Assembly: GCA_021817145.1 (NCBI GenBank)
Contig: JAKAVV010000003.1
Location: forward strand, 78,764 to 142,763
Direction of reading: 5' to 3'
DNA from: a bacterium
GTDB lineage: Bacteria > Vulcanimicrobiota > JABDET01
DNA: 64,000 nt
Every line of letters begins with the position of its first letter. Position 1 is the stretch's first letter. The notes under the pieces were generated by a model. It was not told where the DNA came from, did not search any database, and saw nothing but the letters and a program-made list of their open reading frames with translations. This document shows, piece after piece, positions 6,294 to 51,293 of this stretch. Both the position numbers and the translations under genes were made by a program.

Positions 6294-6324
6294 ATTTCGA
6301 ATCACGGGTTATCTTCCCCAAGTT

Positions 6325-26969: not shown

Positions 26970-27890
26970 TTAACGCAGCCAGAGCTCTGATGGAAGTTGT
27001 GGATTACTTAAAGCGTTTGCATTCATTCTTTTCTCTGCTTCTTCATAAGCCACTGCCACTGAACAGCATTGAAGTGGAACAATGGATAAAGCGACAATAA
27101 ATGTAAAAAGGCTTACCGGTATAGCAATAAAAGGAGAAAAAGTTTCAAAAAGCTTTCCTCCAATAGATATTAGAATGCCAAATAAAGGAAAATAAATGAA
27201 GAGAATAATGAGGGGAAATAAATTTCTGTCAACCAGGGATCTGCTTTTACTCATAGCTTCTAAAAACCCTGTCTTTTCTTCAGCAAGTATCGGTTTTACA
27301 AATCGATAGGCAAGAAAATAGTAAAAGAAAGCCGTGATCAAAATAAAAAGCCCGATGATGTAAATCGGATTTAGAAAAAATCCATCTATCCATCCGATAA
27401 GACCAAATCCAATGCTTGATAGTAAAAGCCAGGAGAAAAGGAAGGAATGGATGAGATTACCCCAAAATTTTTGAAATTGAAAGAATTCTGGGAATTTTGC
27501 TTCACGATTTTTTAAAACGTTGAATGCCAGCTTATAGCAGCCAATTGAAAATTGTGAAGAAACAATGGCGAAAAAAGGGATGCCAATGATGCAGAAGAGT
27601 GGGAATAAAAGAGTAAAAGAAATTTGAGTCGTGATTTTTGAAGAAAAAATAAAAAGAAAAAATGACCGCAGCAAAGTGGCAATCTGCTGATGGATCATAG
27701 GTTGATGAGATATTGTAAACGGAGAAATAAAAATTGTTGAGATTGAGATGAAGAGGACAAACAGCCCTATAAAATAAACGAATCCGAGAAACCCTGAGAT
27801 TAAAAGATGAGTAAAGATCCAGGCTATAAATAAGCCAGCGCGTTTTCTAAAAATCCCTGCAGCTTTAGAAAGAGAAGCCCAAATTTGCAC
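26970..27890 (-). CDS. Polytopic integral membrane protein, unknown function
   Basis: About 8 hydrophobic segments. It sits at the edge of the glycan island. No family recognised. Confidence 0.45.
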   Translation of the reverse strand: MQIWASLSKAAGIFRKRAGLFIAWIFTHLLISGFLGFVYFIGLFVLFISISTIFISPFTISHQPMIHQQIATLLRSFFLFIFSSKITTQISFTLLFPLFCIIGIPFFAIVSSQFSIGCYKLAFNVLKNREAKFPEFFQFQKFWGNLIHSFLFSWLLLSSIGFGLIGWIDGFFLNPIYIIGLFILITAFFYYFLAYRFVKPILAEEKTGFLEAMSKSRSLVDRNLFPLIILFIYFPLFGILISIGGKLFETFSPFIAIPVSLFTFIVALSIVPLQCCSVAVAYEEAEKRMNANALSNPQLPSELWLR

Positions 27891-27968
27891 GTTTTCTCAT
27901 TACAACGTTTTACTTTGTTATCCTGCTTTAAACCAGCAGTTTTAAAACTAACAAGGAATTTCAGGATC

Positions 27969-29357
27969 ATGCAAAGAACCGTGTCCAAAATGCAAGTTTC
28001 GCCTCAAAAAAGTAAGGTTTCGAATCAAGAAATAGGATTTATCCTTTTAGCTTTGATTCTTCCCCTTCTCTTTTTTCTTATTTCCGCTTTTTTTCTCTTT
28101 AAAAAAAATGAAGGAACAATTTTGATGGCAGGAATTAATACGAATCAGAAATGGATAGTAAAAATTTGCATAAATACAGGTATCAATTTAAATAAACAGT
28201 ACAGCCTTCCTTATGGCATCACTTTTCCTGTTTATCCTAAACCCTTAAATCCATATAAAACAACCCCTCTTATTCTAGCCTGTACTGTAAGAAAATTAGG
28301 AATAGCAAAAATCTTGATTCGTGATGGGGCTCTAATCAATCAGTCTGTTCAGAATGGAACAACCCCTCTTTTAGCTGCTGCTGCAGTTTCCCGCTTGTCC
28401 CCTTTATTCGCTTTAAAGGCAGTAATATATAAAGGAAAAGATTTGAAATTGGTCCGTTTTCTCTTACTCCATGGAGCTGATGTAAGCTGCATAAATCACC
28501 GAGGACAAACCCCTTTAATGTTAGCCGCTCAATCAGGAGATTTTCAAGTAGTTCGCCTGCTTTTAAGAGATCATGCTGCCCTTCATGTCATGGATAAAAA
28601 TGGCAAAACCCCTTTGATGTATGCGGCTCAAGGAGGGAATCTTAAAATTATACGTTTTTTGCTTTCAAAAGGAGTCAGTCCAGCAGCAGAAGATAAAAAC
28701 GGTAGTACAGCAGCAGTTTTGTCCAAAAATTTTAAAGTTGCGAAGTTTCTTCTTTCTCGACTGCCTGTTGGTTTGCGCGGCTTGCAAGCCAGTAAATTTT
28801 ATCTTCTTATGGCTAAAAAAGGCGAGTGGTACTATTTTTATCAACCTGTTTTGCCAGGTGTGAATCTTGCCAATGTAAAAAGTCCTCATTCTGGTATGAC
28901 CCTTCCTTTTTATGCGGTTTTACAGAATAATCTTTATGCGGCTCGGTACCTTCTTTCTCATGGAGCTAATGTTAATGCAAGGGACAATATTGGGCAGACC
29001 CCTTTAATGCTTTCGTGCTTACATGTCGAATATCCGATGACTAAAATGCTTGTAAGAGCAGGAGCTTCCATTAATCTACAAGATAATCAGGGGAGAACCG
29101 CCTTAATGTATTCGATTACATCAGGTCGATATGCCCATTTAACTCCTAATCTTAATATTTCGTTTTATCTTATTTCAAAAGGTGCAAAATTAAATTTAAA
29201 AGATCGGAAGGGTAGAACTGCCTTGTGGTATGCCGAACGTGAAAGCCAGCAGATTATATCGCTTATTAATGGAGTTTACAATTCAGAAGCTACACGGGCA
29301 ACACGGGCTAGAATGAAAAATATCGTAAAAATTTTAAAACAGCACGGCGCACATTGA
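27969..29357 (+). CDS. Ankyrin-repeat protein with N-terminal transmembrane anchor
   Basis: Multiple ..G.TPLM.AA..G....V..LL..GA..N repeats. The ATG at 27969 follows an AAGGAA RBS; the ORF track start at 27885 would overlap the divergent gene. Confidence 0.75.
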   Translation: MQRTVSKMQVSPQKSKVSNQEIGFILLALILPLLFFLISAFFLFKKNEGTILMAGINTNQKWIVKICINTGINLNKQYSLPYGITFPVYPKPLNPYKTTPLILACTVRKLGIAKILIRDGALINQSVQNGTTPLLAAAAVSRLSPLFALKAVIYKGKDLKLVRFLLLHGADVSCINHRGQTPLMLAAQSGDFQVVRLLLRDHAALHVMDKNGKTPLMYAAQGGNLKIIRFLLSKGVSPAAEDKNGSTAAVLSKNFKVAKFLLSRLPVGLRGLQASKFYLLMAKKGEWYYFYQPVLPGVNLANVKSPHSGMTLPFYAVLQNNLYAARYLLSHGANVNARDNIGQTPLMLSCLHVEYPMTKMLVRAGASINLQDNQGRTALMYSITSGRYAHLTPNLNISFYLISKGAKLNLKDRKGRTALWYAERESQQIISLINGVYNSEATRATRARMKNIVKILKQHGAH

Positions 29358-32215: not shown

Positions 32216-32968
32216 ATGTTAAAAAGGTTTATTCGAGTGATCCGTTCCTGGTTCGGGTTTATTTTAGGAAAAGCTGAAGACCCTGAATTGATTTTAAATC
32301 AGTATATAGAGGATCAAAGAGCCAATATGAGTAAAATGCAGAATGACGCGGTAGCTGTGATTGCCGCTGAAAAAGAGCTTGAGCACAGTGTTGAGGCTTC
32401 TCAGAATAAGCTGGTTGAACTGGATAACAATGTCAGAACAGCTGTTCAAGCAGGAAGAGATGATCTGGCTTCTTCTTTAATCGCCCAGAAAAATTCTGAG
32501 CAGACAAATCTTGCCAGTTTAAAAGCCCAACTGGAAAAAGCCCGCCAGCACTCAACAGATGTAAAAAATATGCTGCGACAGGCGCAGCTGAATTTCCAAA
32601 AAGCAAGCAGTGAAAGGATGCAGCTGATTGCTGAGAACAGAAGAGCTAAAATGCAGGAAAAAGTGGCGCAGACCATGCAGAGTTTTTCAAGTTATTCTGA
32701 TTCTGACACTCTTGACAGAATGAAAGAAAAAATAAAAGAACGGCAGGCTCGCGCAGAAGCAATGATGGATTTAGGAACTTCCAGCACTCAAGGACAGCTG
32801 GCATCTCTTCAACAGTCCAGCGCCAATGTTGAAGTCCAGGCGCAGCTGCTGGAATACAAGAAACAGATGGGTCTGCTGCCGCAGACCCCTGCCATTGATC
32901 AAACAAGCTCTCAGCCTCAGAAAACTATGGAGCCTTTAAAAATTGAAGAAAAACCTCCTGGAACATAG
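32216..32968 (+). CDS. pspA: PspA/IM30 (phage-shock protein A / Vipp1 family)
   Basis: The N-terminus LKRFIRVIRSWFGFILGKAEDPELILNQYIEDQ is typical of PspA. Coiled-coil throughout. 250 aa. Confidence 0.8.
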   Translation: MLKRFIRVIRSWFGFILGKAEDPELILNQYIEDQRANMSKMQNDAVAVIAAEKELEHSVEASQNKLVELDNNVRTAVQAGRDDLASSLIAQKNSEQTNLASLKAQLEKARQHSTDVKNMLRQAQLNFQKASSERMQLIAENRRAKMQEKVAQTMQSFSSYSDSDTLDRMKEKIKERQARAEAMMDLGTSSTQGQLASLQQSSANVEVQAQLLEYKKQMGLLPQTPAIDQTSSQPQKTMEPLKIEEKPPGT

Positions 32969-32980
32969 TTTTTCCTTTTT

Positions 32981-33748
32981 ATGAATGAAAAGCAGTCCTG
33001 GTTTAAACTGGTAGGAAAAGCATTCCTGGAACCATTGAATTACGGCAGCCTGGCTGTTTTTGCTCTTCTGTCAGGATTAATAGGGCACTGGACCCCTCTT
33101 GTCTTTGCGTTCAGCGCGGAATTAGTCTATCTTGGAATAGCTCCAGGACTTCCTTTTTTAAAAAATCAGGCTCTTCAGGAGTTTTCTCAAAAAAAAGAGG
33201 AAGAGTTCAGTTTAAAACTGCAGAAATTTAGAACACAGCTTAAACCTGACAGCCTGATAAAGGCTGAGAACCTCGATAAAATTCGAATAAAAATTCAAGA
33301 ATCAGGTTTCTCGAATTCATCAGAAAAAATCAACGCTATTTTTTTATCTTATTTAAAGTTTTTGTCTTTAAAAGATCAGTACCAAGATTATTCTCCAGAT
33401 TCTGAGCTTGGAAAAATAGAACAAGAAAAGCAAAATCTATTAAATCAGGAAAACAGCGCAGCGTCTTTTGAAGAAAAACAAGCCATTCAGGAAAATATTG
33501 AGCTTTTAAAGAAGCGGCAGGAACATTTACAAAATATTCAAAATCTTGAGAAACAGTTGGGGATGAGATTGGCGCAGATTGAAAATACAATGCAGCTGGT
33601 ATTAGATCAAACTTTAGAATCAAAAGCAGACACGAATGTTTCAGGATCTTTGAATTCTCTTCTTGCGCAGGTTGATGCCACAGAAGAGGTTGCTCGAGAA
33701 ACAGGTGGCAGCATGCTTCAAGATTTAGATTTGGGAAAAAGGAGTTAG
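32981..33748 (+). CDS. Membrane-anchored coiled-coil protein (possible PspA partner), unknown family
   Basis: N-terminal hydrophobic segments followed by a long heptad-rich region. Lies immediately downstream of pspA. Confidence 0.4.
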   Translation: MNEKQSWFKLVGKAFLEPLNYGSLAVFALLSGLIGHWTPLVFAFSAELVYLGIAPGLPFLKNQALQEFSQKKEEEFSLKLQKFRTQLKPDSLIKAENLDKIRIKIQESGFSNSSEKINAIFLSYLKFLSLKDQYQDYSPDSELGKIEQEKQNLLNQENSAASFEEKQAIQENIELLKKRQEHLQNIQNLEKQLGMRLAQIENTMQLVLDQTLESKADTNVSGSLNSLLAQVDATEEVARETGGSMLQDLDLGKRS

Positions 33749-33829
33749 AAAAAAATCTCAGAAGTTTAAAAATCGCGACAGATGGGTATAACAAAAGTAG
33801 CTTTAACTTCGTGGAAAGGAGGTGAAACG

Positions 33830-34393
33830 ATGAAAAAAGCATTAGGGTATCTTCTTGTTGCCTTCTTTGCTCTCAGCTCTTTTGGATTTGCGGCTGTTGT
33901 AAAAACTCACAAAATGAGCGCTTCCACCAAAGTTATGAGTCCAGCGAATCGCTGGTATTATAATGAGGTTCGCGAGCTTTCTGCAGCAGTAAAAACTCAT
34001 AAATTGTCCTGGAAACAGGCGCATCAAGAACTGCTAGCCGCAATTGGAAAGGCTGAAAAACAAGGAAAGCTTACTAAACTGCAGGCAGGAGCATTAACCC
34101 ATAGAGCTGCTGCAGCTGGTGATCCTCATGAAGGCCTATGGATGAAAAAAGGATACACCAAAGCAGCTCCTAAAGTCATGCCAATGAGCAGAAAACTTCA
34201 CACAGTCAGCCCTGCGAACCGCTGGTATTACAATCAGACACATCAGCTCTGGCAGGAAGTAAAAAACCATAAGCTGACCAGCATGCAAGCTCATAAAGAG
34301 TTATTTGCCCGAATTCAGCAGGCAGAGAGAAAAGGAACATTGACAAAAGCTCAAGCTGAGGTTCTGACAAAAAGAGCTAAAAGCACAAAGTAG
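33830..34393 (+). CDS. Secreted protein with two ~75-aa internal repeats (SPANRWYYN..KTHKL..QAHQEL..)
   Basis: The ATG at 33830 follows GGAGGTG. Signal peptide MKKALGYLLVAFFALSSFGFA. The two repeats read SPANRWYYNEVRELSAAVKTHKLSWKQAHQELLAAIGKAEKQGKLTKLQAGALTHRA and SPANRWYYNQTHQLWQEVKNHKLTSMQAHKELFARIQQAERKGTLTKAQAEVLTKRA. Confidence 0.55.
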   Translation: MKKALGYLLVAFFALSSFGFAAVVKTHKMSASTKVMSPANRWYYNEVRELSAAVKTHKLSWKQAHQELLAAIGKAEKQGKLTKLQAGALTHRAAAAGDPHEGLWMKKGYTKAAPKVMPMSRKLHTVSPANRWYYNQTHQLWQEVKNHKLTSMQAHKELFARIQQAERKGTLTKAQAEVLTKRAKSTK

Positions 34394-34420
34394 CAAATTA
34401 AATTTAAATTGTTTTTGTTA

Positions 34421-34446
34421 AAGCCAGGAGACCCTGGCTTTTTTCT
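34421..34446 (+). terminator. Rho-independent terminator (aagccagg-agac-cctggctt + T6)
   Basis: Read directly: a 8-bp perfect stem, 4-nt loop and a T-run. It lies just after the repeat-protein stop. Confidence 0.65.
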
Positions 34447-34493
34447 TTGTTCAGAAAGGATGGCAGTCCTTTTGACCGTCAATTTATTCTTGA

Positions 34494-36218
34494 ATGAGAG
34501 AGGTAAATCATACGTCTAATGAGAAAAACTCTTGCAGGATGAATCTTGACGTGCAATCTCTTACTCTGCCAGTTTGGGCTCATAAGCTGAGAGAGCAGTA
34601 TCTGGCTGGTATTGCCAGCCAGTTTCTGCTTCATTCCAATATTAATGATCTGGTTCCTTATCAGCAGGAATATTATCCTCTTCGGAAGTTTTTGGGCTTT
34701 TTATTAGGTAAAAAAGAGATTTTAATTTTTTACAATCGTTCAGAAGGATTGACTTTTGCCCAACCTGAGATGAAAGATAAGTTTATTAGAGCTTTGAATA
34801 TTGCTCTTGGACCCCTTAACCCTTATCAAAATTCTCTCCCTCATGAGCCTTCTAAAGTTTTTCCTCTGATTGAATTGGTTTTTTCAATCCACTCGTGCGG
34901 TGTTGTGATTGATTATGTGGAAACCATTGTTCCCGCAGGCGAAGTTTCTTATATGTCGGGTGAGGATAGAAATAATTTGGTAACTCTTAGACGATGGGCT
35001 TCAAGCCCGCAGCTGTTGAATGCGGACAGTGTGGTTATTTTAATTACAGAAAACATGAGCGATGTGCATCCTTCCCTTCGAAATGTGACAAGCAGAATGA
35101 ATATTTTGGAGATTCCTTTTCCAGGTGAACCTGAAAGATTGGATTATATTTCATGGAGAATGAAAAAAGGCTCTTTTGTTCTTGAAGAAATTTCACCTGA
35201 AAGGCTTGCTGCATTGACTTCAGGGTTAAATCGAGTTCATTTGGAGGATGTTTTTTCTCGGGCTGCTTATCAAAGCGGGAAAATAACGTATGATCTGGTA
35301 AAAGAAAGCAAAAAAGCGATTATTGAAAATGAATGTTCAAATTTAGTTGAATTTGTGGAGCCTGAACATGGATTTGAAATTGTAGGAGGATGTCAAGCCA
35401 TCAAAGATATCTTGCTGAAAACCGCAAAATCGGTGAGAGAAGGGAGAACTCGATGGGTTCCCATGGGTATTTTGTTTGATGGTCCTCCTGGAACTGGAAA
35501 AACTTTTTTAGGAGAAGCATTTGCCAAAGAATGCGGTTTAAACTGCTTAAAATTAAAAAATTTCAGAGAAAAATGGGTGGGTTCAACAGAATCGAATCTG
35601 GAAAAAATTTTAAATGTGATTAAAGCATTAGCTCCTGTGATTGTCATTGTGGATGAAATTGACCAATCTCTTGGAAAAAGAGGAGGGGAAGGGGATTCAG
35701 GCACTTCGAATCGAATTTTTGCCATGCTTATTTCTTTTATGGGAGATACCACCCATCGGGGAAAAATTATTTTTATCGGGATGTGCAACCGCCCGGATCT
35801 TCTGGATGAAGCGTTTAAAAGGCCAGGAAGGTTTGATTTAAAAATACCGTTTTTTTATCCTGACACAAAAGAAGAAGTTTTATCTCTGCTTAAGGCTCTG
35901 GTTCAGAAAAATGGAATTTCCCTGTCAGGGGAGTTCCTTGAGAAGTTTTCCAAAAGATTGATTGGATATTCAGGGGCTGAAATAGAGGCGATTTTGCTGC
36001 AGTCAGCCCGGTATGCTGATGATGAAGGACGCTCTTCAATTGAGGAAAAAGATTTAGAAAAAGGGGTTGGGCAGTTTATTTTAAATCGGGATCCAATGGT
36101 TCGATTTATGGAATTAATCAGTGTTAAAGAGTGTTCTTTTCGAGATCTTCTGCCTGTCCGATATCAATCTCTTTCCCCTGACCAGATCGAAGACCAGATC
36201 CAGAGCCTGGGGTTTTGA
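34494..36218 (+). CDS. AAA+ ATPase, classic clade (single C-terminal AAA module) with ~300-aa N-terminal domain of unknown family
   Basis: Walker A GPPGTGKT, Walker B IVIVDEID, SRH-like FKRPGRFD. It is not MoxR-like. Confidence 0.7.
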   Translation: MREVNHTSNEKNSCRMNLDVQSLTLPVWAHKLREQYLAGIASQFLLHSNINDLVPYQQEYYPLRKFLGFLLGKKEILIFYNRSEGLTFAQPEMKDKFIRALNIALGPLNPYQNSLPHEPSKVFPLIELVFSIHSCGVVIDYVETIVPAGEVSYMSGEDRNNLVTLRRWASSPQLLNADSVVILITENMSDVHPSLRNVTSRMNILEIPFPGEPERLDYISWRMKKGSFVLEEISPERLAALTSGLNRVHLEDVFSRAAYQSGKITYDLVKESKKAIIENECSNLVEFVEPEHGFEIVGGCQAIKDILLKTAKSVREGRTRWVPMGILFDGPPGTGKTFLGEAFAKECGLNCLKLKNFREKWVGSTESNLEKILNVIKALAPVIVIVDEIDQSLGKRGGEGDSGTSNRIFAMLISFMGDTTHRGKIIFIGMCNRPDLLDEAFKRPGRFDLKIPFFYPDTKEEVLSLLKALVQKNGISLSGEFLEKFSKRLIGYSGAEIEAILLQSARYADDEGRSSIEEKDLEKGVGQFILNRDPMVRFMELISVKECSFRDLLPVRYQSLSPDQIEDQIQSLGF

Positions 36219-36221
36219 ACA

Positions 36222-38426
36222 ATGATTCCTACGATTGACGAATTTTTAGAAGAAATAAAAAGAGATCATGAAGCCGAAGATTTCGCTGTTATTCGAAAAG
36301 CGTATGATTATGCTTTTAAGGCTCATGAAGGACAAAAACGGAGATCCGGAGAGCCTTTTATTATCCATCCAATTGAAACCGCAAAAATCGTGTCTTCTCT
36401 CGAACTTGATACCCCCACTGTCTGCGCTGCTCTTTTACATGATGTGGTGGAAGACTGCAGTATTCCCATACGTGAAATAGAAAAAGAGTTTGGGGCTGAG
36501 GTGGCTTTAATTGTTGATGGGGTTACCAAGCTCACCTCTATTACTCTCAGGCAGGAAGACAGCAAGCCGGATGCGCGGTTAGCAAAAGAAGAAGAACATT
36601 TCGAAAATTTGCGGCGGATCTTTGTCGCCATGGCAAAAGATATTCGGGTTATTTTAGTGAAGCTGGCGGATCGGCTTCATAATTTGAGAACATTGTGCAA
36701 TTTGTCTCCTGACAGGCAAAAATTCATTGCGAAAGAGACTCTGGAAATTTTCACTCCTCTTGCCCACAGGCTTGGAATCTGGCAAATTAAAGCTGAGTTG
36801 GAAGATCTGGCTTTCAGTTATCTTGAGCCAGAACAGTATCAGGAACTTTTTAAACAGGTTTCCCAAAGAAGAGCGGAACGTGAAAAAGATATTCAAACCG
36901 TTGTTATGACTTTAAACAAACGATTAGAACACTCAGGAATAGAGGCTCATATTGAAGGAAGACCAAAACATCTTTACAGTATCTGGCAGAAAATGGTGAG
37001 AAAAGGGAAAAGCTTTGGAGATATCCATGATTTAACAGCGGTTCGGGTTTTAGTGAACAATGTGGAAGATTGTTATGCCGTCTTAGGAATTGTGCATGGA
37101 CTCTGGCTGCCGATCCATGATCGGATAAAAGATTATATCGCCAAACCTAAGAGCAATAATTATCAGTCCCTTCATACAACGGTTTATGGACCAGGAGGAG
37201 AACCTCTTGAAATTCAGATTCGAACCTGGGAGATGCACCGTGTGGCAGAATACGGCGTTGCTGCTCATTGGCAGTATAAACATATTGCAAAAGATAAAAA
37301 TTTAGAGAAAATGATAGCTCCCTGGACCAAGTATTTAAAAGAGTGGCAGGAAGAAGTTAAAAGCGCAAGAGAGTATGTGAAAGCTTTTAAAATGGACTTT
37401 TTGGAATCACAGGTCTTTGTGTTTACTCCAAAAGGGGATGTGTTTGATCTGCCTTCTGGCTCAACCCCTCTTGATTTTGCTTACAGAATCCATACAGGGG
37501 TTGGAAATCAGTGTATTGGAGCAAAAGTGAATGGAAGAATGGTTCAGATTGACCATCACTTGCAAAACGGGGATATTGTAGAGATCATGACGAGCAAGAC
37601 CTCTCCAGGTCCAAATTGGGATTGGCTGAAAATTTGCAAAACTTCAAGCGCTAAGCATAAAATTCGTATATGGTTGAAAAAAGAGAAAAGAGAAGAAAAC
37701 ATACTCCGTGGAAAAGAAATGTTAGATAAATTTCTAATGAAGTTTAGACAAGAAGATTTACCATCAGGGAAAACAAAAGATGAGTTTATACAGCAGCTGG
37801 CAGAGATGTCTAATTTTACAAAAATAGAAGATTTTTTGGAAGCGTTGGGATATGGCGAAATCAACCTTCCTTCTCTGTCCGCGAAAATTAAAGAGTGCGC
37901 TGGCATTTTAGATAAGCCTGTTCCCGCTCGGAAAGGAAAATCGAAATCCTCTGCTTCGAATCAAGCCGTTCTAGTAAAAGGGATGGATAATCTACTGATT
38001 CGATTTTCGAAATGCTGCAGTCCTCTTCCAGGGGATCCAATTTTTGGTTATGTAACCATTGGAAAAGGGGTGAGCATCCACCAGAAATCTTGCCCCAATA
38101 TGAAAGTTTTGCAAAAAGCGGTTCCTGATAGAATTTTAGAGGTTGCCTGGAACCCTGAATTTTCAAGTGGGGTTTATGAATCTGAGATTGTGGTTGAAGC
38201 CTGGGATAAACCGGGGCTGTTAGGTGAAGTCATGGATAAAGTTTATGCGGAAAATATCTTGACTAAAACGTGCCAGGCATCGGCCAAACAGGATCAAGCC
38301 ACTATTCGATTGGTTCTTGAAATTCAAAATGTCGGCAAACTGCAGCAGCTAATAAAGATTCTTTCACAGATTAAAGAAGTGATCCAAATTCGGAGAGTCA
38401 CTCATATTGAAAAAATAGAGGGTTGA
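36222..38426 (+). CDS. rel: Bifunctional (p)ppGpp synthetase/hydrolase, RelA/SpoT (Rel) family
   Basis: HD hydrolase domain (HPIETAKIV..LLHDVVED). Synthetase domain (YQSLHTTV, RTWEMH). TGS and ACT C-terminal regions. 734 aa. Confidence 0.85.
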   Translation: MIPTIDEFLEEIKRDHEAEDFAVIRKAYDYAFKAHEGQKRRSGEPFIIHPIETAKIVSSLELDTPTVCAALLHDVVEDCSIPIREIEKEFGAEVALIVDGVTKLTSITLRQEDSKPDARLAKEEEHFENLRRIFVAMAKDIRVILVKLADRLHNLRTLCNLSPDRQKFIAKETLEIFTPLAHRLGIWQIKAELEDLAFSYLEPEQYQELFKQVSQRRAEREKDIQTVVMTLNKRLEHSGIEAHIEGRPKHLYSIWQKMVRKGKSFGDIHDLTAVRVLVNNVEDCYAVLGIVHGLWLPIHDRIKDYIAKPKSNNYQSLHTTVYGPGGEPLEIQIRTWEMHRVAEYGVAAHWQYKHIAKDKNLEKMIAPWTKYLKEWQEEVKSAREYVKAFKMDFLESQVFVFTPKGDVFDLPSGSTPLDFAYRIHTGVGNQCIGAKVNGRMVQIDHHLQNGDIVEIMTSKTSPGPNWDWLKICKTSSAKHKIRIWLKKEKREENILRGKEMLDKFLMKFRQEDLPSGKTKDEFIQQLAEMSNFTKIEDFLEALGYGEINLPSLSAKIKECAGILDKPVPARKGKSKSSASNQAVLVKGMDNLLIRFSKCCSPLPGDPIFGYVTIGKGVSIHQKSCPNMKVLQKAVPDRILEVAWNPEFSSGVYESEIVVEAWDKPGLLGEVMDKVYAENILTKTCQASAKQDQATIRLVLEIQNVGKLQQLIKILSQIKEVIQIRRVTHIEKIEG

Positions 38427-38427
38427 T

Positions 38428-39537
38428 ATGCCGAAATACACAAAATGGGTTCTTTTTTTTATGGCTGTTTTTCTTTTATTTGTCGCGATCAATATTCAGA
38501 CAGGCTGGCTCTTTGTTCTGGATTTTACGCTGCTCTCTTTTTTGTTTACAGCATGGATTTTCCCGAAAATAATGACTTATGGAGAGATTAGAGGGGAAAT
38601 CTATGCTCAGCCTGTTTTTGAAGAAGAAAATTTGGATATCATGGCTCGATTTAAGAACCTTTCTTTTTTCAATAAATATTTTTTATTTATCGAATTTGAG
38701 TTTTTTAAAATTTCTCTTTTTCTTCCCTCTCTTCCCAAAAAGAAAACCGTTGAATTATCCTGCAAGGCAAAAGCGGCAAAAAGAGGGGTTTACTCTTCAC
38801 CTGAGCTGACATTAAAGGCAGTAGGGCCTGCCGGGCTTTTTGAACACAAAAAAAAGCTCTCATGTAAAGGAAGGATTGTTGTCTATCCGTCTTTAAACCC
38901 ATTTCCTCTTCCTGCGCAGTCTTCTTCTCCTGTTCCTCTGCTTTCTGATAAGGGAGTTTTTTCAGGAAAAGGGGATGGGGAAGAATTTGCCGGAATTCGC
39001 GATTATACGCCAGGAGACTCTTTAAGAAGTGTTCACTGGCCGTCATCGGCAAAAACGGGAAAATTAATGATTCGCGAAACAATGAAGATTCACCCTTTCC
39101 TTTATACCTTGTATTTAGATCAAAACCAGCGCAGGACAGGATATTCTTTTGAAATAAGTGTAAAACAGGCAGCTTATGCCATTCATGAAATCTCGAAAAC
39201 GGGAAATTGGGTTCAGATTTTCCAAAAAGGGAAGACAGAATTGAAAAGTTTGCAGGGGAATCTGGAGCTTCTGGCTGGAATCCAGGCAGATCAAGCTTTT
39301 CCTTTAAATGAGCAGATAAAACTTTACCTGCCTTTTATACAAGTAAAAAAAGATCTTATTTTTTTTACAGATGTTCCCGAACGATTTATTTCAGAATCCT
39401 GGGTTTTTATCGAGGAACTTTTAGAAATGGAGATTAGAATAATGGTTGTGTTCAGCGGTGAGAATAGAACCGAAGCATCTCGACTCTTATCTTCATGGCT
39501 CCAGCTAAAAGGGATTTTTACCGCTTTTGGAGCATAA
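38428..39537 (+). CDS. DUF58-family protein (vWA-like; usually partnered with MoxR ATPase / transglutaminase)
   Basis: DYTPGDSLRSVHWPSSAKTGKLMIRE is the DUF58 signature (RxYxxGD..I.W..SAR....RE). N-terminal TM segments. Confidence 0.65.
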   Translation: MPKYTKWVLFFMAVFLLFVAINIQTGWLFVLDFTLLSFLFTAWIFPKIMTYGEIRGEIYAQPVFEEENLDIMARFKNLSFFNKYFLFIEFEFFKISLFLPSLPKKKTVELSCKAKAAKRGVYSSPELTLKAVGPAGLFEHKKKLSCKGRIVVYPSLNPFPLPAQSSSPVPLLSDKGVFSGKGDGEEFAGIRDYTPGDSLRSVHWPSSAKTGKLMIRETMKIHPFLYTLYLDQNQRRTGYSFEISVKQAAYAIHEISKTGNWVQIFQKGKTELKSLQGNLELLAGIQADQAFPLNEQIKLYLPFIQVKKDLIFFTDVPERFISESWVFIEELLEMEIRIMVVFSGENRTEASRLLSSWLQLKGIFTAFGA

Positions 39538-39540
39538 ACC

Positions 39541-41883
39541 ATGAGAACTCCTGAAAATTCAATTCCCCTTCGAATATCTGTCTTTTTTGTTGTTTCAATC
39601 TCTTTAGCCGCTCTTCTCCGTGAAGAGTACTGGCCCTTGAGATTAAGTATTGAGGCTTTTCTAGGAGTGGCTGCAGGTTCACTGCTGAGTTGGCTTTTTC
39701 GATACAAACAAACTTTCTGGTTAAGAGCGATTTTAGGAATTTCCATGTTATGGGTAGGATTCCATGGGATTTATCAAATCGTTTCCACCCCCTACGATCC
39801 TCGTGTTCCACTCGCCAATCTTTTGATTAAACTTTTAGCGCTCCACAGTTTTGATATGCCGGCTCGAAAAGATTTGTCTTATTCTCTCCTTGTTTCATTT
39901 ATTTTAATGGCTCTTGCCGCTGTTTTCAGCGTGGATTCAAGTTTTGGGCTGTTTTTAATTTTTTATACTGTAATGGTTATCTTTGTGTCTTTTATCATTT
40001 CTTATGAAGAATCTCGGACCCGCGCGCAGAATCCCTCATTGACCTCCTTTCCAAAATTTTTTTGGCTTTTCACGGGAGCAGCAGTATTGTTTTTAATTCC
40101 ATTAACAGCGGCAAGTCTGTTCCTTTTCCTTTTTTTCCCAAGAATTCAAGGATATACTTTAAGAATTACTCCAATTTCTGTTCATCTGCCAAGTTTTTCA
40201 TTATTTCATGGAAGAGTTGCTAATCCCGATTATCCAGTATTTCCAGGTCCTCAAACCTCTCTTTTTATTTTAAAAAGGGATTATGGAAAATTTAATCCTG
40301 ATTCTTATTTTGGATTTAATCCGTATTTGGATTTAAGATTGAGAGGAAGGTTATCCAATCAAGTGGTGATGAAAGTTAAATCTCAGGAACCGGGTTACTG
40401 GAGAGGAATGGCTTATGACCATTACACTGGAGAAGGATGGACAGTTTCGTTTCGGAAAGCGAAACAGTTGACTTTGTATGATAATTCACTGCAGGTCACT
40501 TATCCAGGAGGAGGGTATCCTCACTCAAGAACAGCCATTCAAACCTATTATGTGACAGCTGCTCTGCCTAATTTAATTTTTTCGATTTATGAGCCAACTA
40601 CGATTTATTTTCCCAGCTCAACTCTTTATCAGAATGTTGGAAATGCGATTTCAGCCCCATTTTATCTTTCACCAGGAACAGAGTACACGGTTATAAGCCA
40701 CGTTCCAACCCATCTGGTTCAATTGTTAAGAAATTCAAATCCAGGTTATCTTCCTTATTTGCGATACCTCCATCTTCACAAGACTTATTTGAGTCTTTCG
40801 AAAGCTGATTTTCCACATACTCCGCAGCAAATCGGTGAGTCTTTTTATCAGAACGAAAAAAACTTATATTCCAGAAAAGGAGTTGTTCTTTATTATGGAG
40901 GAGCCCCAGCCAGATTTTACGCCATGGCGGTAAAAATGTCAAAACTTCCTAGTTTCGTTTATTTGAAATATTACCATCTTCAAAAATACGATTTGCAGCT
41001 TCCCAAAGAGCTTCCGCAAAAAGTCAGAAACCTGGCTGCAGCAATTACGGAAAATCACAAAACCATGCTCGGAAAAATTATGGCGATTCTGGGTTACCTG
41101 CATCAGTTTCCCTATACTCTTAATATTCCACCCCCAGCCCCTGGGGAAGATGCCGTGTCTCAATTTCTATTTCATTTGAAAAAAGGGTACTGTGAACAGT
41201 TTGCTTCCGCATTTGCTGTTTTAGCCCGATGCGTAGGGATTCCGACCAGATTGGCGACCGGGTATGCCACAGGAACCTATAATCCATTTACCATGGAATA
41301 CGTTGTGCGAGAGAAAGATGCTCATGCTTGGGATGAAGTCTATTTTCCTCATATTGGATGGATTCCATTTGACTCTTCTCCTGCCTACAACATGATGCCA
41401 TCTTATCAAAAAAGAGGGATTTTTATTGGACTCCGCACGGTTTTAAATTATTTTAAATCTCTTATTAAAAGATCAGTTTCCAGGAAAACCTTGCAAAGGG
41501 GGGAGCAGTGGCTGGAATTGGCTGCTGCTGTTTTATTGGCAGGGATAATCTTGTTTTTATTTTTCTTTATCCAAAAACTGAATCTTCATTTTCAGTGGAA
41601 AGGATTTCGAAAGTTTTCTAAAAAGTCTGCTGCTGTTTCAAAAAAAAGGTTTTTTAATCTCTATCAAAAGTTAGAGAAATTTTTAACAATGAAGGGATAT
41701 CACAGAAGCATTTCTGAAACTCCGTATGAACTGGCGGAAAAAATTAAAGAAAATGACCTAAAAGCAAGGGTCTGGGATATCCTCCGTATTTACTCGAAAG
41801 TTAGATTTTCTTCAGATCCTGTGGAAGAGGAAGAGATCCGGAAAATGAATGACCTTTTGGGTGAACTGCGACAAAAAAAGTAA
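39541..41883 (+). CDS. Transglutaminase-like (Cys-His-Asp) membrane protein, DUF3488/DUF4129-type
   Basis: GYCEQFASAFAVLARCVGIPTRLATGY (catalytic Cys), then DAHAWDEVYF (His) and GWIPFD (Asp). Multi-TM N-terminus and a second TM near the C-terminus. Confidence 0.75.
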   Translation: MRTPENSIPLRISVFFVVSISLAALLREEYWPLRLSIEAFLGVAAGSLLSWLFRYKQTFWLRAILGISMLWVGFHGIYQIVSTPYDPRVPLANLLIKLLALHSFDMPARKDLSYSLLVSFILMALAAVFSVDSSFGLFLIFYTVMVIFVSFIISYEESRTRAQNPSLTSFPKFFWLFTGAAVLFLIPLTAASLFLFLFFPRIQGYTLRITPISVHLPSFSLFHGRVANPDYPVFPGPQTSLFILKRDYGKFNPDSYFGFNPYLDLRLRGRLSNQVVMKVKSQEPGYWRGMAYDHYTGEGWTVSFRKAKQLTLYDNSLQVTYPGGGYPHSRTAIQTYYVTAALPNLIFSIYEPTTIYFPSSTLYQNVGNAISAPFYLSPGTEYTVISHVPTHLVQLLRNSNPGYLPYLRYLHLHKTYLSLSKADFPHTPQQIGESFYQNEKNLYSRKGVVLYYGGAPARFYAMAVKMSKLPSFVYLKYYHLQKYDLQLPKELPQKVRNLAAAITENHKTMLGKIMAILGYLHQFPYTLNIPPPAPGEDAVSQFLFHLKKGYCEQFASAFAVLARCVGIPTRLATGYATGTYNPFTMEYVVREKDAHAWDEVYFPHIGWIPFDSSPAYNMMPSYQKRGIFIGLRTVLNYFKSLIKRSVSRKTLQRGEQWLELAAAVLLAGIILFLFFFIQKLNLHFQWKGFRKFSKKSAAVSKKRFFNLYQKLEKFLTMKGYHRSISETPYELAEKIKENDLKARVWDILRIYSKVRFSSDPVEEEEIRKMNDLLGELRQKK

Positions 41884-41931: not shown

Positions 41932-43086
41932 ATGTTGCTAACAAAACAGCAGAAGCGCTGGCAGGATCTCGCAAGGCAGTTTGCCCAAACAGAAGTTAAG
42001 CCCAGGGTAGATGAAATGGAGAAAAAAGGAGAATTTCCTCTCCAGTTTATGAAAAGGCTGGGAGAGTTAGGGATCCTGGGAATTGGGTTTCCCGAACAAT
42101 ATGGGGGACAGAATGCGGATTCGTTTTCTTTCATATTGGCGGTCAAAGAGATCAGCAAAGTGTGGGCTTCTCTAGGGCTTTCCATTGGAGCGCATTTGCT
42201 TGGCGCCAATCCTATCTATTTTGCTGGGACTGAAGAACAGAAAAAACGATATTTAATTCCACTGGTTCGCGGGGAAAGTTTAGGCGCTTTTGGATTAACA
42301 GAACCTTCCAGCGGTTCAGATGCGGGAAGTTCTCAAACCAGCGCAGTCAGTGAGAATGGAGTTTATGCTTTAAATGGCAGGAAAATTTTTACCACCTCAG
42401 CTTCTTATGCCAGCACTTATGTTGTGTCCGCCTTAACCATAAGAGCCAGGGAAAAAGTAGGAATATCCGCTTTTATTCTGGAGAGGAATTATCCCGGTTT
42501 AGCGATTGCGAAAAAAGAAGAAAAACTTGGGCTGTGGGCTTCAGATACCGCGGGCTTGATTTTGGAAGGCTGCAGAGTTCCAAAAGAGAATCTTTTAGGG
42601 GATGAAGGAAAGGGATTCCGAGTGTTTCTTCAAACCTTAAATGCAGGACGTCTTGGAATCGCAGGATGGGCTCTTGGGATTGCTGAAGCAGCTTTTGAAC
42701 AGATGCTGGAATGGGCTGAGAAAAACGAGATTAAAAAAGATTTAATGAACAACCATGAATGGGAAGCTGGAATGATTGCTGAATCTGCGACAAAGTTAGA
42801 AGCCGCTCTATTGTTAACCCAGGAAGCTTGTCGGGTTAAAGACACAGGGGAACTTTATATAAAAGAAGCTTCCATGGCAAAATATTTCGTTTCTTCTCTA
42901 GCGGTTGAAACGTGCGATTTAGCTTTAAAATTGATTGGCGCCTCTGCTTTAACCAATGACTTGCCTGTTGAGCGTTATTTTAGAGACGCTAAATTAGGAG
43001 AGATTGGCGAGGGAACTTCTGAGATTCAAAAATTAGTCATTGCCCGAGAAGTGCTTCGAAAATCTGAAAAGCTGGTAACAGTGTGA
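41932..43086 (+). CDS. Acyl-CoA dehydrogenase (short/medium-chain type)
   Basis: GLTEPSSGSDAGS motif, C-terminal ..YEGTSEIQ.. motif and catalytic Glu region. 384 aa. Confidence 0.8.
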   Translation: MLLTKQQKRWQDLARQFAQTEVKPRVDEMEKKGEFPLQFMKRLGELGILGIGFPEQYGGQNADSFSFILAVKEISKVWASLGLSIGAHLLGANPIYFAGTEEQKKRYLIPLVRGESLGAFGLTEPSSGSDAGSSQTSAVSENGVYALNGRKIFTTSASYASTYVVSALTIRAREKVGISAFILERNYPGLAIAKKEEKLGLWASDTAGLILEGCRVPKENLLGDEGKGFRVFLQTLNAGRLGIAGWALGIAEAAFEQMLEWAEKNEIKKDLMNNHEWEAGMIAESATKLEAALLLTQEACRVKDTGELYIKEASMAKYFVSSLAVETCDLALKLIGASALTNDLPVERYFRDAKLGEIGEGTSEIQKLVIAREVLRKSEKLVTV

Positions 43087-43102
43087 GGAGGGATAAACTT
43101 AC

Positions 43103-44266
43103 ATGTTAGTAAAAGGACTTGGGATCAGTTTTGATTTATCTGAAGATCATCTGATGATCCAGGATATGATTCGGAAGTTTGCTGAAAAAGAGGTTGCCCC
43201 AGGAGCAGCTGAGAGAGATCGCTCCATGGAGTTTCCGCGAGAAATCTGCATGAAATTGGGAGAACTTGGATTAATGGGAGTTAACACTCCTGTTGAATAT
43301 GGCGGTTCAGGAATGGATTCTATCAGTTATGCGATTATCATTGAAGAACTTTCAAGAGCTTGCGCTTCCACAGGGGTAGTTTCTGCTGTTCAAAACACGC
43401 TGGCTCAGCTTCCGCTGTACCGTTTTGGAAGCGAAGATTTAAGACGTAAATATCTTCCCGATTTAGCCTCAGGAAAGAAAATTGGGGCGTACGGTTTAAC
43501 TGAACCTTCCAGCGGTTCAGATGCAGGGAGCCTTCAAACGTCTGCCGTGAAAAATGGGGACAGCTATCTATTAAACGGACAAAAAGTTTTTGTGACCAAT
43601 GGCACAGCAGCTGATTTATATATTGTTTATGCGACTGTCGATAAAAGCAAAGGAAGCAGAGGAATCTCTGCTTATGTGGTAGAACGAACTTTCCCTGGAT
43701 TCAAAATTGTTCGGAAAGAAGAAATGCTCGGAGTTCGAGCTTCAGGAACAGCCCAAATCGCTTTTGAGAACTGCAAAGTTCCTGCCTCTAATTTGATCGG
43801 TGAGGAAGGGATTGGACTTCGAATCGCGTTAACCACCCTTGATTCAGGAAGGGTGAGTATTGCCGCTCAGGCAGTTGGAATAGCGCAAGCTGCTTATGAA
43901 GCCGCTTTAAAGTATTCAAAAGAGAGATCTCAGTTTGGAAAAACGATTTCAAATTTTCAGTTTATTCAAGGCATGTTGGTAGATATGATAACCTCTATTG
44001 AAGCAGCGCGCCTGTTGGTTTATCGAGCTTCTTATTTGAAAGATAAAGGACTAACTTTTACAAAAGAAGCTTCCATGGCGAAATATTTCGCTTCTACCAT
44101 GTCTGAAAAAGTTACCAGTCATGCTCTTCAAATTCACGGCGGATACGGTTATACAAAAGATTATCCTGTGGAGCGTTTCTACAGGGATGCTAGAGTGACT
44201 GAGATTTATGAAGGCACATCTGAGGTTCAGAAAATGGTGATCGCCAGAAATATATTAGGAGGTTAG
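43103..44266 (+). CDS. Acyl-CoA dehydrogenase (butyryl-CoA dehydrogenase-like), tandem paralog
   Basis: YGLTEPSSGSDAGSLQTSA and ..IYEGTSEVQ... 387 aa. Confidence 0.8.
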   Translation: MLVKGLGISFDLSEDHLMIQDMIRKFAEKEVAPGAAERDRSMEFPREICMKLGELGLMGVNTPVEYGGSGMDSISYAIIIEELSRACASTGVVSAVQNTLAQLPLYRFGSEDLRRKYLPDLASGKKIGAYGLTEPSSGSDAGSLQTSAVKNGDSYLLNGQKVFVTNGTAADLYIVYATVDKSKGSRGISAYVVERTFPGFKIVRKEEMLGVRASGTAQIAFENCKVPASNLIGEEGIGLRIALTTLDSGRVSIAAQAVGIAQAAYEAALKYSKERSQFGKTISNFQFIQGMLVDMITSIEAARLLVYRASYLKDKGLTFTKEASMAKYFASTMSEKVTSHALQIHGGYGYTKDYPVERFYRDARVTEIYEGTSEVQKMVIARNILGG

Positions 44267-44267
44267 G

Positions 44268-44459
44268 ATGATCCCCATACTCTATCTCATTTTTGGCGCT
44301 GCCGGGCTTTTGCTTGCTTTTTTCAAGGTCAGCGGAGGTTATTATGTTTTATGGGCTTTTTCCCTGCTCCTTTTAAATTTATGGATAACTGAAGGGGAAA
44401 AAATTAAGAGGAGGGTATTTAAAATTGAAGATAGCGGTTCTAGTAAAACAGGTTCCTGA
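44268..44459 (+). CDS. Putative small two-helix membrane protein (63 aa)
   Basis: The ATG follows a strong GGAGG RBS 2 nt after the ACAD stop. The product is hydrophobic (LYLIFGAAGLLLAFF.., VLWAFSLLLLNLW). Its 3' end overlaps the etfB start by 35 nt. Expression is unproven. Confidence 0.3.
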   Translation: MIPILYLIFGAAGLLLAFFKVSGGYYVLWAFSLLLLNLWITEGEKIKRRVFKIEDSGSSKTGS

Positions 44460-45204
44460 TACCGCCGCTCAAATTCAGATTAAGCCTGACTGGTCTGGAA
44501 TTGTGGAAGAAGGGATTAAATATATTCTAAGTCCTTATGATGAATATGCGGTAGAAGAAGCGGTAAGATTAAAAGAGAAATTTGAAGGATCTGAAGTTAC
44601 TGCTGTGACTGTTGGTCCTGAAAGAGCAAAAGAAGTGCTGAGAACTTGTCTGGCAGTTGGAGTTGATCGCGCCGTTTTAATTCATGATCAGGAGAACTCT
44701 TTTGATCCTTATTCAACAGCAGAACTTCTAGCTAAAAAGCTTGAGTCCTTGAATCTCGATCTGGTGTTGTGCGGGAAACAGGCTGCTGATGATGATATGG
44801 CTTATATGGGTGGAGCAGCAGCTCAAAAGTTAAATTTTCCGTTTATATCGCTTGTGGTTCAGATTGAAATTTTGAAAGAAACTGGAAAAGCTAAAATAAG
44901 GAGACAAATTGAGGAAGGAGAGGAAATATTGGAAGTAACTCTTCCCTGTGTTCTTTCTGCTCAGAAAGGATTGAACGAACCCAGATATCCTTCCCTTCCG
45001 GGCATGATGAAAGCAAAGAAAAAAGAGATTGAGGAGATAAAACCAGCGGATTTAATCCCTGATTTTGCGAGTCTTGCTAAAACCAGACAGGAGCGCCTGC
45101 AGCCAGTTCCTCCTCGTTCTGCGGGAAGAATTTTAAAAGGATCTCCTGAAGAAATGGTTAAAGAGCTGGTAAAACTTTTGAGAGATGAGGAAAAAGTAGT
45201 ATGA
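44425..45204 (+). CDS. etfB: Electron-transfer flavoprotein beta subunit
   Basis: (M)KIAVLVKQVPD N-terminal signature. The start codon is TTG, preceded by AAGAGGAGG. Confidence 0.8.
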   Translation: MKIAVLVKQVPDTAAQIQIKPDWSGIVEEGIKYILSPYDEYAVEEAVRLKEKFEGSEVTAVTVGPERAKEVLRTCLAVGVDRAVLIHDQENSFDPYSTAELLAKKLESLNLDLVLCGKQAADDDMAYMGGAAAQKLNFPFISLVVQIEILKETGKAKIRRQIEEGEEILEVTLPCVLSAQKGLNEPRYPSLPGMMKAKKKEIEEIKPADLIPDFASLAKTRQERLQPVPPRSAGRILKGSPEEMVKELVKLLRDEEKVV

Positions 45205-46190
45205 TTTTACTTTTAGCCGAAAAAAAAGAAGGGAAGTTTTTAAGATTAACTCAGGAGCTTTTAAGTGAAGCCAGGCGCATCAATGATTCACTTAAAGAGG
45301 AAATCGCTGTTCTTTTTGTTGGATTTCAGGCAGCCCAGGAAGATGTTGTTCAATTAGGAGAATGGGGAGCGGATAAGATAATCAATCCGGTCCATCCTCT
45401 TTTGGAGAAATATGATTCCGAAAATTATGTTCAATTATTTCATGAGATCGCATCCATGAATTCGATTTCGATTATTCTTTTAGGCTCCACAGTTTATGGG
45501 AAAGAGCTTGCGGGCATGATTTCGGCAAAATTAAAAGGGGGATATGCAGGGGACTGTGTTCGCTTATTCTATGAGAAGGGGAAAATTTCAGCTTTAAGAC
45601 CTGTTTATTCAGGGAAAGTTCATGCGGTTGTTTCAGCAGTCAGCGGTCCTTTCACTGCTAGTTTCAGAGCTAACATGTGTAAAGTCGAGGGTCCGATCCC
45701 TGGGAAAAGAGCAGAGGTTGTTCCGTTCGATTTCCATCCAATCAATAATGGGAAGATCAAGATCCTGGAAGTCGTAAAATCTCAAGATCAACTCGCCGAT
45801 CTTTCTGAGGCGAGAATTATTATTTCAGGTGGAAGAGGGTTAAAAGGTCCAGAAAATTTTCGCCTTTTAGAAGAGCTGGCAAAAGTAACAGGTGGAGCGG
45901 TAGGGGCATCCAGAATGGTCGTGGATTCCGGATGGATTGAGCACCAGCATCAGGTAGGGCAAACAGGAAAAACAGTCAGCCCTGATCTTTATATTGCCTG
46001 TGGAATTTCAGGAGCAATCCAGCATTTAGCCGGCATGTCCAGCGCGAAGTGCATTGTTGCCATTAATAATGATCCTGAAGCTCCTATTTTTAAAATAGCG
46101 ACTTATGGTATTGTGGGAGATTTATTTGTGATCCTTCCCCTCTTAATAAAAGAGATGCGGCAGGTTTTCTCTGGAAAAGCAGTGGTTTAG
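45201..46190 (+). CDS. etfA: Electron-transfer flavoprotein alpha subunit
   Basis: C-terminal FAD-binding motif [23 protein letters not shown] overlap with etfB. Confidence 0.8.
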
Positions 46191-50435: not shown

Positions 50436-50957
50436 GAGAGCTAGCCGGGTGATCGCGGAGCTGAGAGTCGAGAAGTTAGATTAAGATTCGCGCTTCGAGG
50501 AAAGTCCGAGCTCCACAGGATAAGGTGCTGGGTAATACCCAGTAGAGGCGACTCTAGCAAAGTGCCACAGAAATGTTAACCGCCATAAGATCTTTTACAA
50601 ATCGCCTGTCCGGCAAAAATAAGATCTGTGGTAAGGGTGCAACGGCGGGGTAAGAGCCCACCAGTCATCTGGCGACAGATGAGCTAGGCAAACGCCACCT
50701 GGAGCAAGATCAAGCAGGGGGAACATTTATCGGATCTGTTGATGCAGCTTAGGTATGTGTGTGAAGGGTTGGTCATCAATGGGTTTATAAGATAATGTTA
50801 TGTAATCCTGGCAGTACCCCGGGTCGATCGCTAGAAACTGTCCAGTAATGGCAGTTCAAGATAGATGATCACCTTCTGCTCAATGCCAATAAAAGCTCCG
50901 TTAGAGCTGAAAAATGGCAGGATGCAGAAACAGAACTCGGCTTACAGGTTAACTCTC
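50436..50957 (+). ncRNA. rnpB: RNase P RNA (bacterial type A-like), unusually long
   Basis: GAGGAAAGTCCGAGCTCCACAGG (P4 5' strand). ACAGAAATGTTAACCGCC. GGGTGCAACGGCGGGGTAAGAGCCCACCAG. CCACCTGGAGCAAGATCAAGCAGGGG. ACAGAACTCGGCTTACAGG (P4 3' strand). Covariation with the E. coli M1 RNA pair GUCCGGG/CCCGGCU appears here as GTCCGAG/CTCGGCT. The ends are approximate. Confidence 0.85.
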
Positions 50958-51293
50958 TATTTTTTTTATTTTCTCGCTATCTACTGTTCCATCTTCTCGT
51001 TCTATCTGAATAAAAGGATCCCGATAAAGCGGTGATAATCCACTGTATCTGCACTTAACTTCATTGTGATAACAAGGAAGAATATTGCCGCAGTAAATAG
51101 ATCCCTGTTCCCCTTTAACAGAAGAGTTTTTGTAATCTGGATATTCTACAAGAATCGGCACACTTTTTTGCAAAATAAAACAAAACTTCTCTTGAGGCTC
51201 AAGAGCTTTTTGTTTTAATTGAACTTCAACCGCTTTTTTCCGAAGGCTCATTCTATTGGCTTCATCATACCATAACAAGGGGATAAAAAGCAA
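50949..51293 (-). CDS. Hypothetical protein (114 aa)
   Basis: ORF only. Its 3' end abuts the rnpB 3' end. Confidence 0.3.
   Translation of the reverse strand: MLFIPLLWYDEANRMSLRKKAVEVQLKQKALEPQEKFCFILQKSVPILVEYPDYKNSSVKGEQGSIYCGNILPCYHNEVKCRYSGLSPLYRDPFIQIEREDGTVDSEKIKKIES

Follow-up and report, generated by a model that had tools for sequence, protein, structure and literature searches.

We analysed a 64,000-nucleotide stretch of contig JAKAVV010000003.1 (GenBank assembly GCA_021817145.1; hereafter the window), in which four genes encoding an AAA ATPase, a RelA/SpoT-type enzyme (Rel), a DUF58-like protein and a TgpA-like transglutaminase follow one another on the same strand (Table 1). A preliminary description of this DNA, made from the letters and their translations, had proposed an operon-like packing with gaps of 2-4 nt. 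The packing and the tight spacing were borne out, but the measured spacers are of 3, 1 and 3 nt for the AAA/rel, rel/DUF58 and DUF58/tgpA junctions, respectively. The first junction reads TGA-aac-ATG, the second gagggtTGAtATG and the third ggagcaTAAaccATG, and motifs resembling a Shine-Dalgarno (SD) sequence, GAGGG before the DUF58 start and GGAG before the TgpA start, lie inside the ends of the preceding genes. Promoters or terminators between the genes, which the same description had named as grounds for rejecting an operon, did not emerge: there is no terminator-like site at any of the three junctions, since the gaps leave no space for one, and a consensus scan returned 18 promoter-like matches against a shuffle expectation of 23.6 +/- 5.2, that is, no excess. 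Consensus promoter scans performed at or below chance, are uninformative for this organism and were not used as evidence. The identical four-gene arrangement recurs in six assemblies made independently from this species, which occurs in 66 collection blocks. A second species (locus L092; AAA 92% and Rel 88% identical) has it too, and there the AAA gene also ends 3-4 nt before rel. The true start of the AAA protein is probably M16 (position 34539, 559 aa), because this start was chosen by the gene callers in six assemblies and the alignments with homologues begin around residue 25.

Table 1. Features of the four-gene run and of its immediate surroundings (positions in the window).
Feature	Position	Strand	Length	Remarks
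PspA/IM30 (ESCRT-III-like)	32216..32968	+		First gene of the upstream module; PF04012, 7.9e-34
Protein with one N-terminal transmembrane segment (residues 24-42) and a long helical coiled-coil-like tail	32981..33748	+	255 aa	
Protein with an N-terminal transmembrane/signal segment (residues 22-40)	33782..34393	+	203 aa	
Terminator-like hairpin plus T-run	34420..34441	+		Separates the PspA sub-cluster from the AAA gene
Tandem AAA ATPase	34494..36218	+	574 aa	Open reading frame
Rel	36222..38426	+	734 aa	Open reading frame
DUF58-like protein	38428..39537	+	369 aa	Open reading frame
TgpA-like protein	39541..41883	+	780 aa	Open reading frame
Two acyl-CoA dehydrogenases, electron transfer flavoprotein beta and alpha	41932..46190	+		Starts 48 nt after tgpA

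The domain calls made earlier for the four products (AAA, RelA/SpoT, DUF58 and transglutaminase) were upheld by Pfam and NCBIfam searches and by alignment with homologues. Rel is a bifunctional long RelA/SpoT homologue (RSH) with HD hydrolase, synthetase, TGS, AH/RIS and ACT regions. Pfam recognized HD_4, RelA_SpoT, TGS and ACT_4, and TIGR00691 scored 784 bits against a cut-off of 499. The protein aligns to Bacillus subtilis Rel (6yxa) at 2e-177, with HDVVED, GRPKHxYSIxxKM and EIQIRT conserved, and the catalytic signatures of hydrolase (HD) and synthetase (RxKxxxSxxxK, ExQIRT) are both present, as HDVVED, GRPKHLYSIWQKM and EIQIRT. Neither Pfam nor the alignment to 6yxa disclosed an extra domain. 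The TgpA-like protein is polytopic, with PF11992 (TgpA_N), PF01841 (Transglut_core) and PF13559 (DUF4129) all above their cut-offs, and it aligns to the Pseudomonas aeruginosa TgpA domain 6g49 at 1e-22 with the Cys-His-Asp triad in register (GYCeqfA against GFCahyA, DAHAW against DAHAW, and GWipfD against GWlsvD). We regard it as a candidate membrane transglutaminase or cysteine peptidase. A K/R-rich segment after its last transmembrane (TM) segment points to a DUF4129 tail on the cytoplasmic side and to a catalytic domain outside. This agrees with the extracytoplasmic position reported for the catalytic domain in P. aeruginosa (Milani et al. 2012, PMC3507681), but not with the cytoplasmic one predicted by Zhang et al. 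(2012, PMC3495828).

The DUF58-like protein presents an N-terminal TM hairpin, a beta-sandwich, the signature motif and a C-terminal domain of the von Willebrand factor A (vWA) fold, so that both the hairpin and the vWA-like domain of the DUF58 family are found. Its PF01882 match stays below the gathering score (21.1 bits vs a cut-off of 23.4) and covers the signature motif only (residues 190-231); homology to bona fide DUF58 proteins is clear, as P0125-P0128 carry PF01882 and align with it throughout. The metal ion-dependent adhesion site (MIDAS) motif DxSxS is absent from the vWA domain, in which LYLDQNQRR stands where the model places the end of beta1. P0126-P0128, the nearest DUF58 homologues outside the clade linked to Rel that is described below, lack the motif too; among these three, MoxR linkage was looked at for P0128 only. 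The soluble domain is predicted to be cytoplasmic and hence on the same side as Rel.

It had been stated in the preliminary description that DUF58 and transglutaminase genes usually travel with a gene for a MoxR-type ATPase, and the metagenome loci agreed with this: apart from the two exceptions described below, every more distant DUF58 locus with readable upstream sequence (about 60) had MoxR upstream, and most had TgpA downstream. Zhang et al. (2012, PMC3495828) described YebA/TgpA-like transglutaminases as being in "strict" association with MoxR and a vWA protein, and proposed a membrane-proximal degradation machine. The window resembles a MoxR-DUF58-TgpA operon in that a protein with the DUF58 signature motif and vWA fold is followed by a polytopic TgpA with Cys-His-Asp and DUF4129, and in the order and tight spacing of these last two genes. 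It differs in that the gene adjacent to DUF58 on the upstream side is not moxR but a full-length rel, and in a DUF58 protein that falls below the Pfam cut-off and carries no MIDAS motif. No moxR was found in the 64 kb of the window by tblastn with a genuine MoxR (taken from locus L098), and Pfam searches of 20 further window open reading frames yielded housekeeping genes only. In P. aeruginosa, the DUF58 gene PA2874 is preceded by PA2875, which we take to be moxR. There, PA2875, PA2874 and tgpA are co-transcribed, tgpA is essential and PA2875 is dispensable (Milani et al. 2012, PMC3507681). Because PA2875 is dispensable, a DUF58-TgpA pair without an adjacent moxR is plausible, and independent cases were found in two of the loci recovered: in L150 (8567-13220) a lysA-like decarboxylase gene precedes DUF58 and TgpA, and in L164 (8591-11251) a secretin gene precedes a DUF58 gene that has no TgpA.

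Searches started from the DUF58 protein and from Rel recovered the rel-DUF58-tgpA trio in seven lineages, namely the window and loci L092, L094 (L167 being the same species), L096, L097, L099 and L100. The identities to the window proteins (Rel, DUF58 and TgpA, in this order) were 88, 65 and 63% in L092; 71, 48 and about 46% in L094; 71, 46 and 41% in L096; 67, 40 and 40% in L097; 66, 38 and 43% in L099; and 59, 33 and 34% in L100, the values for DUF58 and TgpA dropping in nearly the same order as those for Rel. A neighbour-joining tree built from 38 DUF58 proteins united those linked to Rel in a single clade with L100 basal, and nearly all the proteins outside this clade have MoxR upstream. 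The junctions inside the trio are either gaps of 1-7 nt or overlaps of 4-8 nt. The surroundings change: there are five different upstream contexts, including the tandem AAA, a 7TM-HD_5 gene, the ribosomal L27 gene and a phospholipase D-like gene (360-nt gap), and the trio is followed by acyl-CoA dehydrogenase and electron transfer flavoprotein (ACAD/ETF) genes, by pilB, by asnB on the minus strand or by unknown genes on the other strand. In L094, for example, it is preceded by the 7TM-HD_5 gene and followed by pilB/pilT/pilC. The bond between Rel and DUF58-TgpA implied by the preliminary description is thus real in evolutionary terms, since the trio has been kept in seven lineages despite five upstream contexts. 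Given the short gaps or overlaps and the SD-like motifs inside the upstream genes, DUF58 and tgpA are most likely co-transcribed and translationally coupled with rel.

The clade that carries the trio is small and uncultured, because only about eight protein clusters have a Rel at least 58% identical to that of the window, and no Rel relative above 59% identity was found outside it. For one of these proteins (P0138, Rel 58%) the contig stops 118 nt past rel, so that its downstream context is uninformative. P0142 was available as protein only, and the gene downstream of its rel is cut. The two closest outgroup Rel genes with readable flanks (53-55% identical) lie in the orders recJ-rel-dtd and recJ-rel, the downstream gene of the latter being cut by the contig end. 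According to the preliminary description, an unrelated context of rel in related genomes would make the adjacency coincidental; such contexts do exist in the outgroups, but within the clade the trio is kept. When compared with the recJ-rel-dtd context, as in Firmicutes, the clade shares the standard bifunctional long RSH, whereas DUF58-tgpA stands after rel instead of dtd and recJ is no longer upstream. We consider it very improbable that the genes are chance neighbours, served by independent internal promoters, and that their adjacency has no consequence. It is true that tgpA of P. aeruginosa has internal promoters that make its expression independent of the upstream gene (PMC3507681) and that the promoter scan is uninformative for the organism studied here; however, gaps of 1-3 nt and overlaps of 4-8 nt leave no intergenic space, and the order holds in seven lineages in spite of the turnover of everything on either side.

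The ATPase was assigned to the AAA clade by a PF00004 match at residues 326-453 (1.6e-34) together with AAA_lid_3; its best NCBIfam families were CDC48, FtsH and PAN, and Pfam returned no match to AAA_3 (PF07726), which together with AAA_lid_2 and a length of about 310-330 aa marks MoxR proteins, so that its earlier placement in a clade other than that of MoxR was correct. Its C-terminal half is a classical AAA of the active kind, with GPPGTGKT as Walker A and VDEID as Walker B. The N-terminal half, previously described as an unknown 300-aa domain, is instead a degenerate AAA module, an AAA-like fold without a Walker A motif, such as those described in PMC11237479. In that work, Ravi et al. 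(2024) found that bacterial PspA co-occurs with an 'inactive-Classical-AAA+Classical-AAA' protein (PMC11237479, Text S2.2, Table S3), in clusters that sometimes include a membrane-anchored divergent Snf7 or another alpha-helical protein. The window presents both elements of the association, that is, two AAA modules in one chain, the N-terminal one inactive, and a PspA gene 1.5 kb upstream of the AAA gene on the same strand. As it fits the description of the tandem AAA, we take the window ATPase to be part of a PspA module.

The family of this ATPase is large and widespread, with proteins of 560-580 aa in many phyla. We surveyed 80 loci carrying homologues 35-46% identical to it (from Acidobacteriota, Myxococcota, Balneolaceae, Treponema, Sericytochromatia and others), using every protein of the window as a query. 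PspA was upstream of the AAA gene on the same strand in 32 of the 80 loci, and in 25 of the 39 that had at least 9 kb of upstream flank. No Rel, DUF58 or transglutaminase was found within 10 kb of the AAA homologue in any of the 80 loci, including the 52 with at least 5 kb downstream of the AAA gene (0/52). The same separation was observed closer to the window. Locus L081 (AAA 76% identical, metagenome 3300054681) keeps the order tyrS(-)/PspA/260 aa/119 aa/AAA, but downstream of its AAA gene stand a 109-aa gene, a terminator that is strong and bidirectional, and the gene of a TonB-dependent receptor; the trio of L094, which comes from the same metagenome, is on another contig. On the grounds of this shared metagenome, L081 and L094 were taken as one organism. 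More distant AAA relatives (60% and 52% identical) were found without the trio as well. Since the next relative has the two blocks on different contigs, the AAA-rel junction represents a genus-level fusion and, together with the absence of Rel, DUF58 and transglutaminase from all 80 AAA loci, this contradicts the previous statement that rel was inserted between the ATPase and its partners.

These results bear directly on the model of the preliminary description, in which the classical-clade AAA would substitute for MoxR in a DUF58/transglutaminase assembly and rel would be embedded in the resulting operon. The model draws on the position of the AAA gene, 3-4 nt before rel and on the same strand in both the window and L092, and on the proposal that the ATPase unfolds substrates for the transglutaminase-like (TGL) peptidase (Zhang et al., PMC3495828), a task that a classical AAA could in principle perform. 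Another, distinct classical AAA, encoded close to the L094 trio, could also be adduced in its favour, but this protein is only 25% identical to that of the window and is separated from Rel by three genes, and no AAA is immediately upstream of the trio in L100 or L099. Moreover, the association of tandem AAA proteins with PspA had already been described (PMC11237479), and PspA linkage was frequent in our survey. On the basis of the 80 loci and of the split blocks in the next relative, the AAA was discarded as a MoxR replacement, and we judge the model to be extremely unlikely. With respect to the PspA-associated tandem AAA+ systems, the window shares with them PspA, a TM/coiled-coil protein, an AAA of about 560 aa with inactive and active halves and a PspA-AAA linkage that recurs across phyla; unlike them, its cluster is joined at the 3' end to rel-DUF58-tgpA in this genus and has a terminator-like hairpin between the small genes and the AAA gene.

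We think it rather probable that two modules, each conserved independently of the other, were fused in this genus alone to give the four-gene run, whereby a DUF58-tgpA pair captured by rel came to stand behind the AAA gene of a PspA module. The gene order is conserved, the trio has a single origin and the two modules are independent of each other. We infer, on the other hand, that the link between Rel and its neighbours is one of co-expression and not a Rel-DUF58 complex. The first module (PspA, the TM/coiled-coil protein, the small protein and the tandem AAA) would be a membrane maintenance cluster similar to ESCRT-III, in which the tandem AAA, to judge from its gene association and fold, is probably Vps4-like and would remodel or disassemble PspA-type polymers. 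The source of the second module would be the widespread moxR-DUF58(vWA)-tgpA operon: in the ancestor of a single, small and uncultured clade, DUF58-tgpA would have lost the adjacent moxR and landed behind the housekeeping bifunctional rel, a position presumably inherited vertically since the capture. The pair may then have become dependent on rel transcription and translational coupling, and this dependence would have preserved the trio, so that each time Rel is produced the membrane vWA/transglutaminase system would be produced as well. A later rearrangement in the genus of the window would have put the trio right after the AAA gene of the PspA module, and the outcome may be one long transcription unit running into the ACAD/ETF genes (48-nt gap, no terminator). 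If co-expression is all that is involved, the locus would be an example of operon remodelling in which an accessory ATPase gene was lost and the remaining pair was captured by a housekeeping promoter, and it would support the experimental hint from P. aeruginosa that DUF58-TgpA can work without MoxR.

Several observations weigh against such a fusion of modules linked by co-expression. The putative co-transcription of the four-gene run is judged from its spacing, and the search for moxR, which found none, covered the 64-kb window and the flanks of L094 and L100. Four genes upstream of Rel, L094 has its classical AAA (Ycf46-like, 511 aa), so that proximity between an AAA and Rel recurs once, although not in L100 or L099. 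The trio has been kept through at least four reshufflings of its flanks and down to 59% Rel identity, which goes beyond simple synteny inertia and would fit a genuine functional dependence on Rel, and the divergence of the Rel-linked DUF58 proteins below the Pfam cut-off could reflect adaptation to a new partner.

The last two points are also what would be expected if Rel were a functional partner of DUF58-TgpA that has replaced MoxR as the nucleotide-handling component, an explanation that we regard as unlikely. The partnership could take two forms: the membrane vWA protein, perhaps as a reporter on the condition of the TgpA domain outside the cytoplasm, would bind Rel and tune synthesis or hydrolysis of guanosine tetra- and pentaphosphate, (p)ppGpp, or else locally made (p)ppGpp would control the TgpA system. 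Rel sits exactly in the slot of MoxR, the trio withstands changes of context with tight or overlapping junctions, its three genes co-diverge from a single origin, and the soluble domain of DUF58 is predicted to be cytoplasmic, like Rel, and has the vWA fold of protein-interaction domains. Long RSH enzymes are, in addition, regulated by small protein partners. However, this Rel is an ordinary full-length bifunctional enzyme with no additional domain, a housekeeping rel has also long been adjacent to the functionally unrelated recJ and dtd, and DUF58-TgpA pairs are found behind other unrelated genes too (lysA-like, secretin). Furthermore, a literature search for a link between ppGpp and DUF58 found no paper, which also counts against the partnership. 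The more specific proposal that Rel was recruited as the cytoplasmic partner of a DUF58/TgpA assembly, providing (p)ppGpp metabolism with an input on the state of the envelope or placing an envelope-modifying enzyme under (p)ppGpp control, is in our opinion decidedly doubtful. Were the partnership true, it would represent a new envelope sensory input to the stringent response, undescribed for any long RSH, and a handle on the function of the very widespread MoxR-DUF58-TgpA system.

As for the upstream genes, the stretch from PspA through the 255-aa TM/coiled-coil protein and the 203-aa repeat protein to the tandem AAA (32216-36218) forms a compact candidate bacterial ESCRT-III/Vps4-like cluster, and hence a candidate for a machine so far described by comparative genomics only (PMC11237479). 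The 255-aa protein gave no Pfam match, even at E values up to 5, and a homologue of it was found between PspA and AAA in 10 distant loci, mostly directly upstream of the AAA gene (L004, L034, L042, L050, L052, L057, L061, L062, L075 and L081; nine of them belong to the 80-locus survey and L081 was looked up separately). By analogy with the published PspA-AAA clusters, it may correspond to their membrane-anchored partner, a divergent Snf7-like or alpha-helical protein. The 203-aa protein, without a family match, contains two internal repeats of about 60 aa (SPANRWYYN...HKL...QAH.EL...KG.LTK.QA) and is kept only within the genus (72% identity in L092). A hairpin of different sequence lies at the equivalent place before the AAA gene in L092 (5924-5949) and in L081 (4805-4820), and the one in the window may lower AAA expression relative to that of PspA by attenuation.

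On the other side of the run, no terminator-like site was found on the + strand between tgpA and the ACAD/ETF genes, which may thus be on the same transcript as the trio in the genus of the window only. They are outside the conserved trio, and were not downstream of it in L094, L097 or L100. In L094, the genes before the trio (4014-7794) are tightly packed, in the order recN-like, Ycf46-like AAA, 229-aa gene, 68-aa gene and 7TM-HD_5 (HD-GYP-like); the stop codon of the latter overlaps the rel start, placing a second enzyme of nucleotide-signalling type beside rel. At the other end of the same trio, inside the 3' end of tgpA and just before pilB, a sequence (13285-13312) matches the sigma-70 consensus perfectly (12/12) and has an extended -10 TG.

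Among other features, the relatives carry outer-membrane and lipopolysaccharide-transport genes, namely the TonB-dependent receptor gene of L081 and LptF/G and 3-deoxy-D-manno-octulosonic acid (Kdo) genes in L091, which makes the label Firmicutes/Bacillota, given by NCBI to one assembly, look doubtful. In outgroup locus L180, ankyrin, tetratricopeptide repeat (TPR) and kinase genes flank rel. The window contains genes for an ankyrin-repeat protein (27885-29357, as annotated in L085, an identical locus) and for a Ser/Thr protein kinase (56468-58294). No rRNA was found in its 64 kb. A bacterial class A RNase P RNA is present at 50437-50960 (256 bits) and, since it spans 524 nt compared with the 367 positions of the model, it must carry sizeable insertions.

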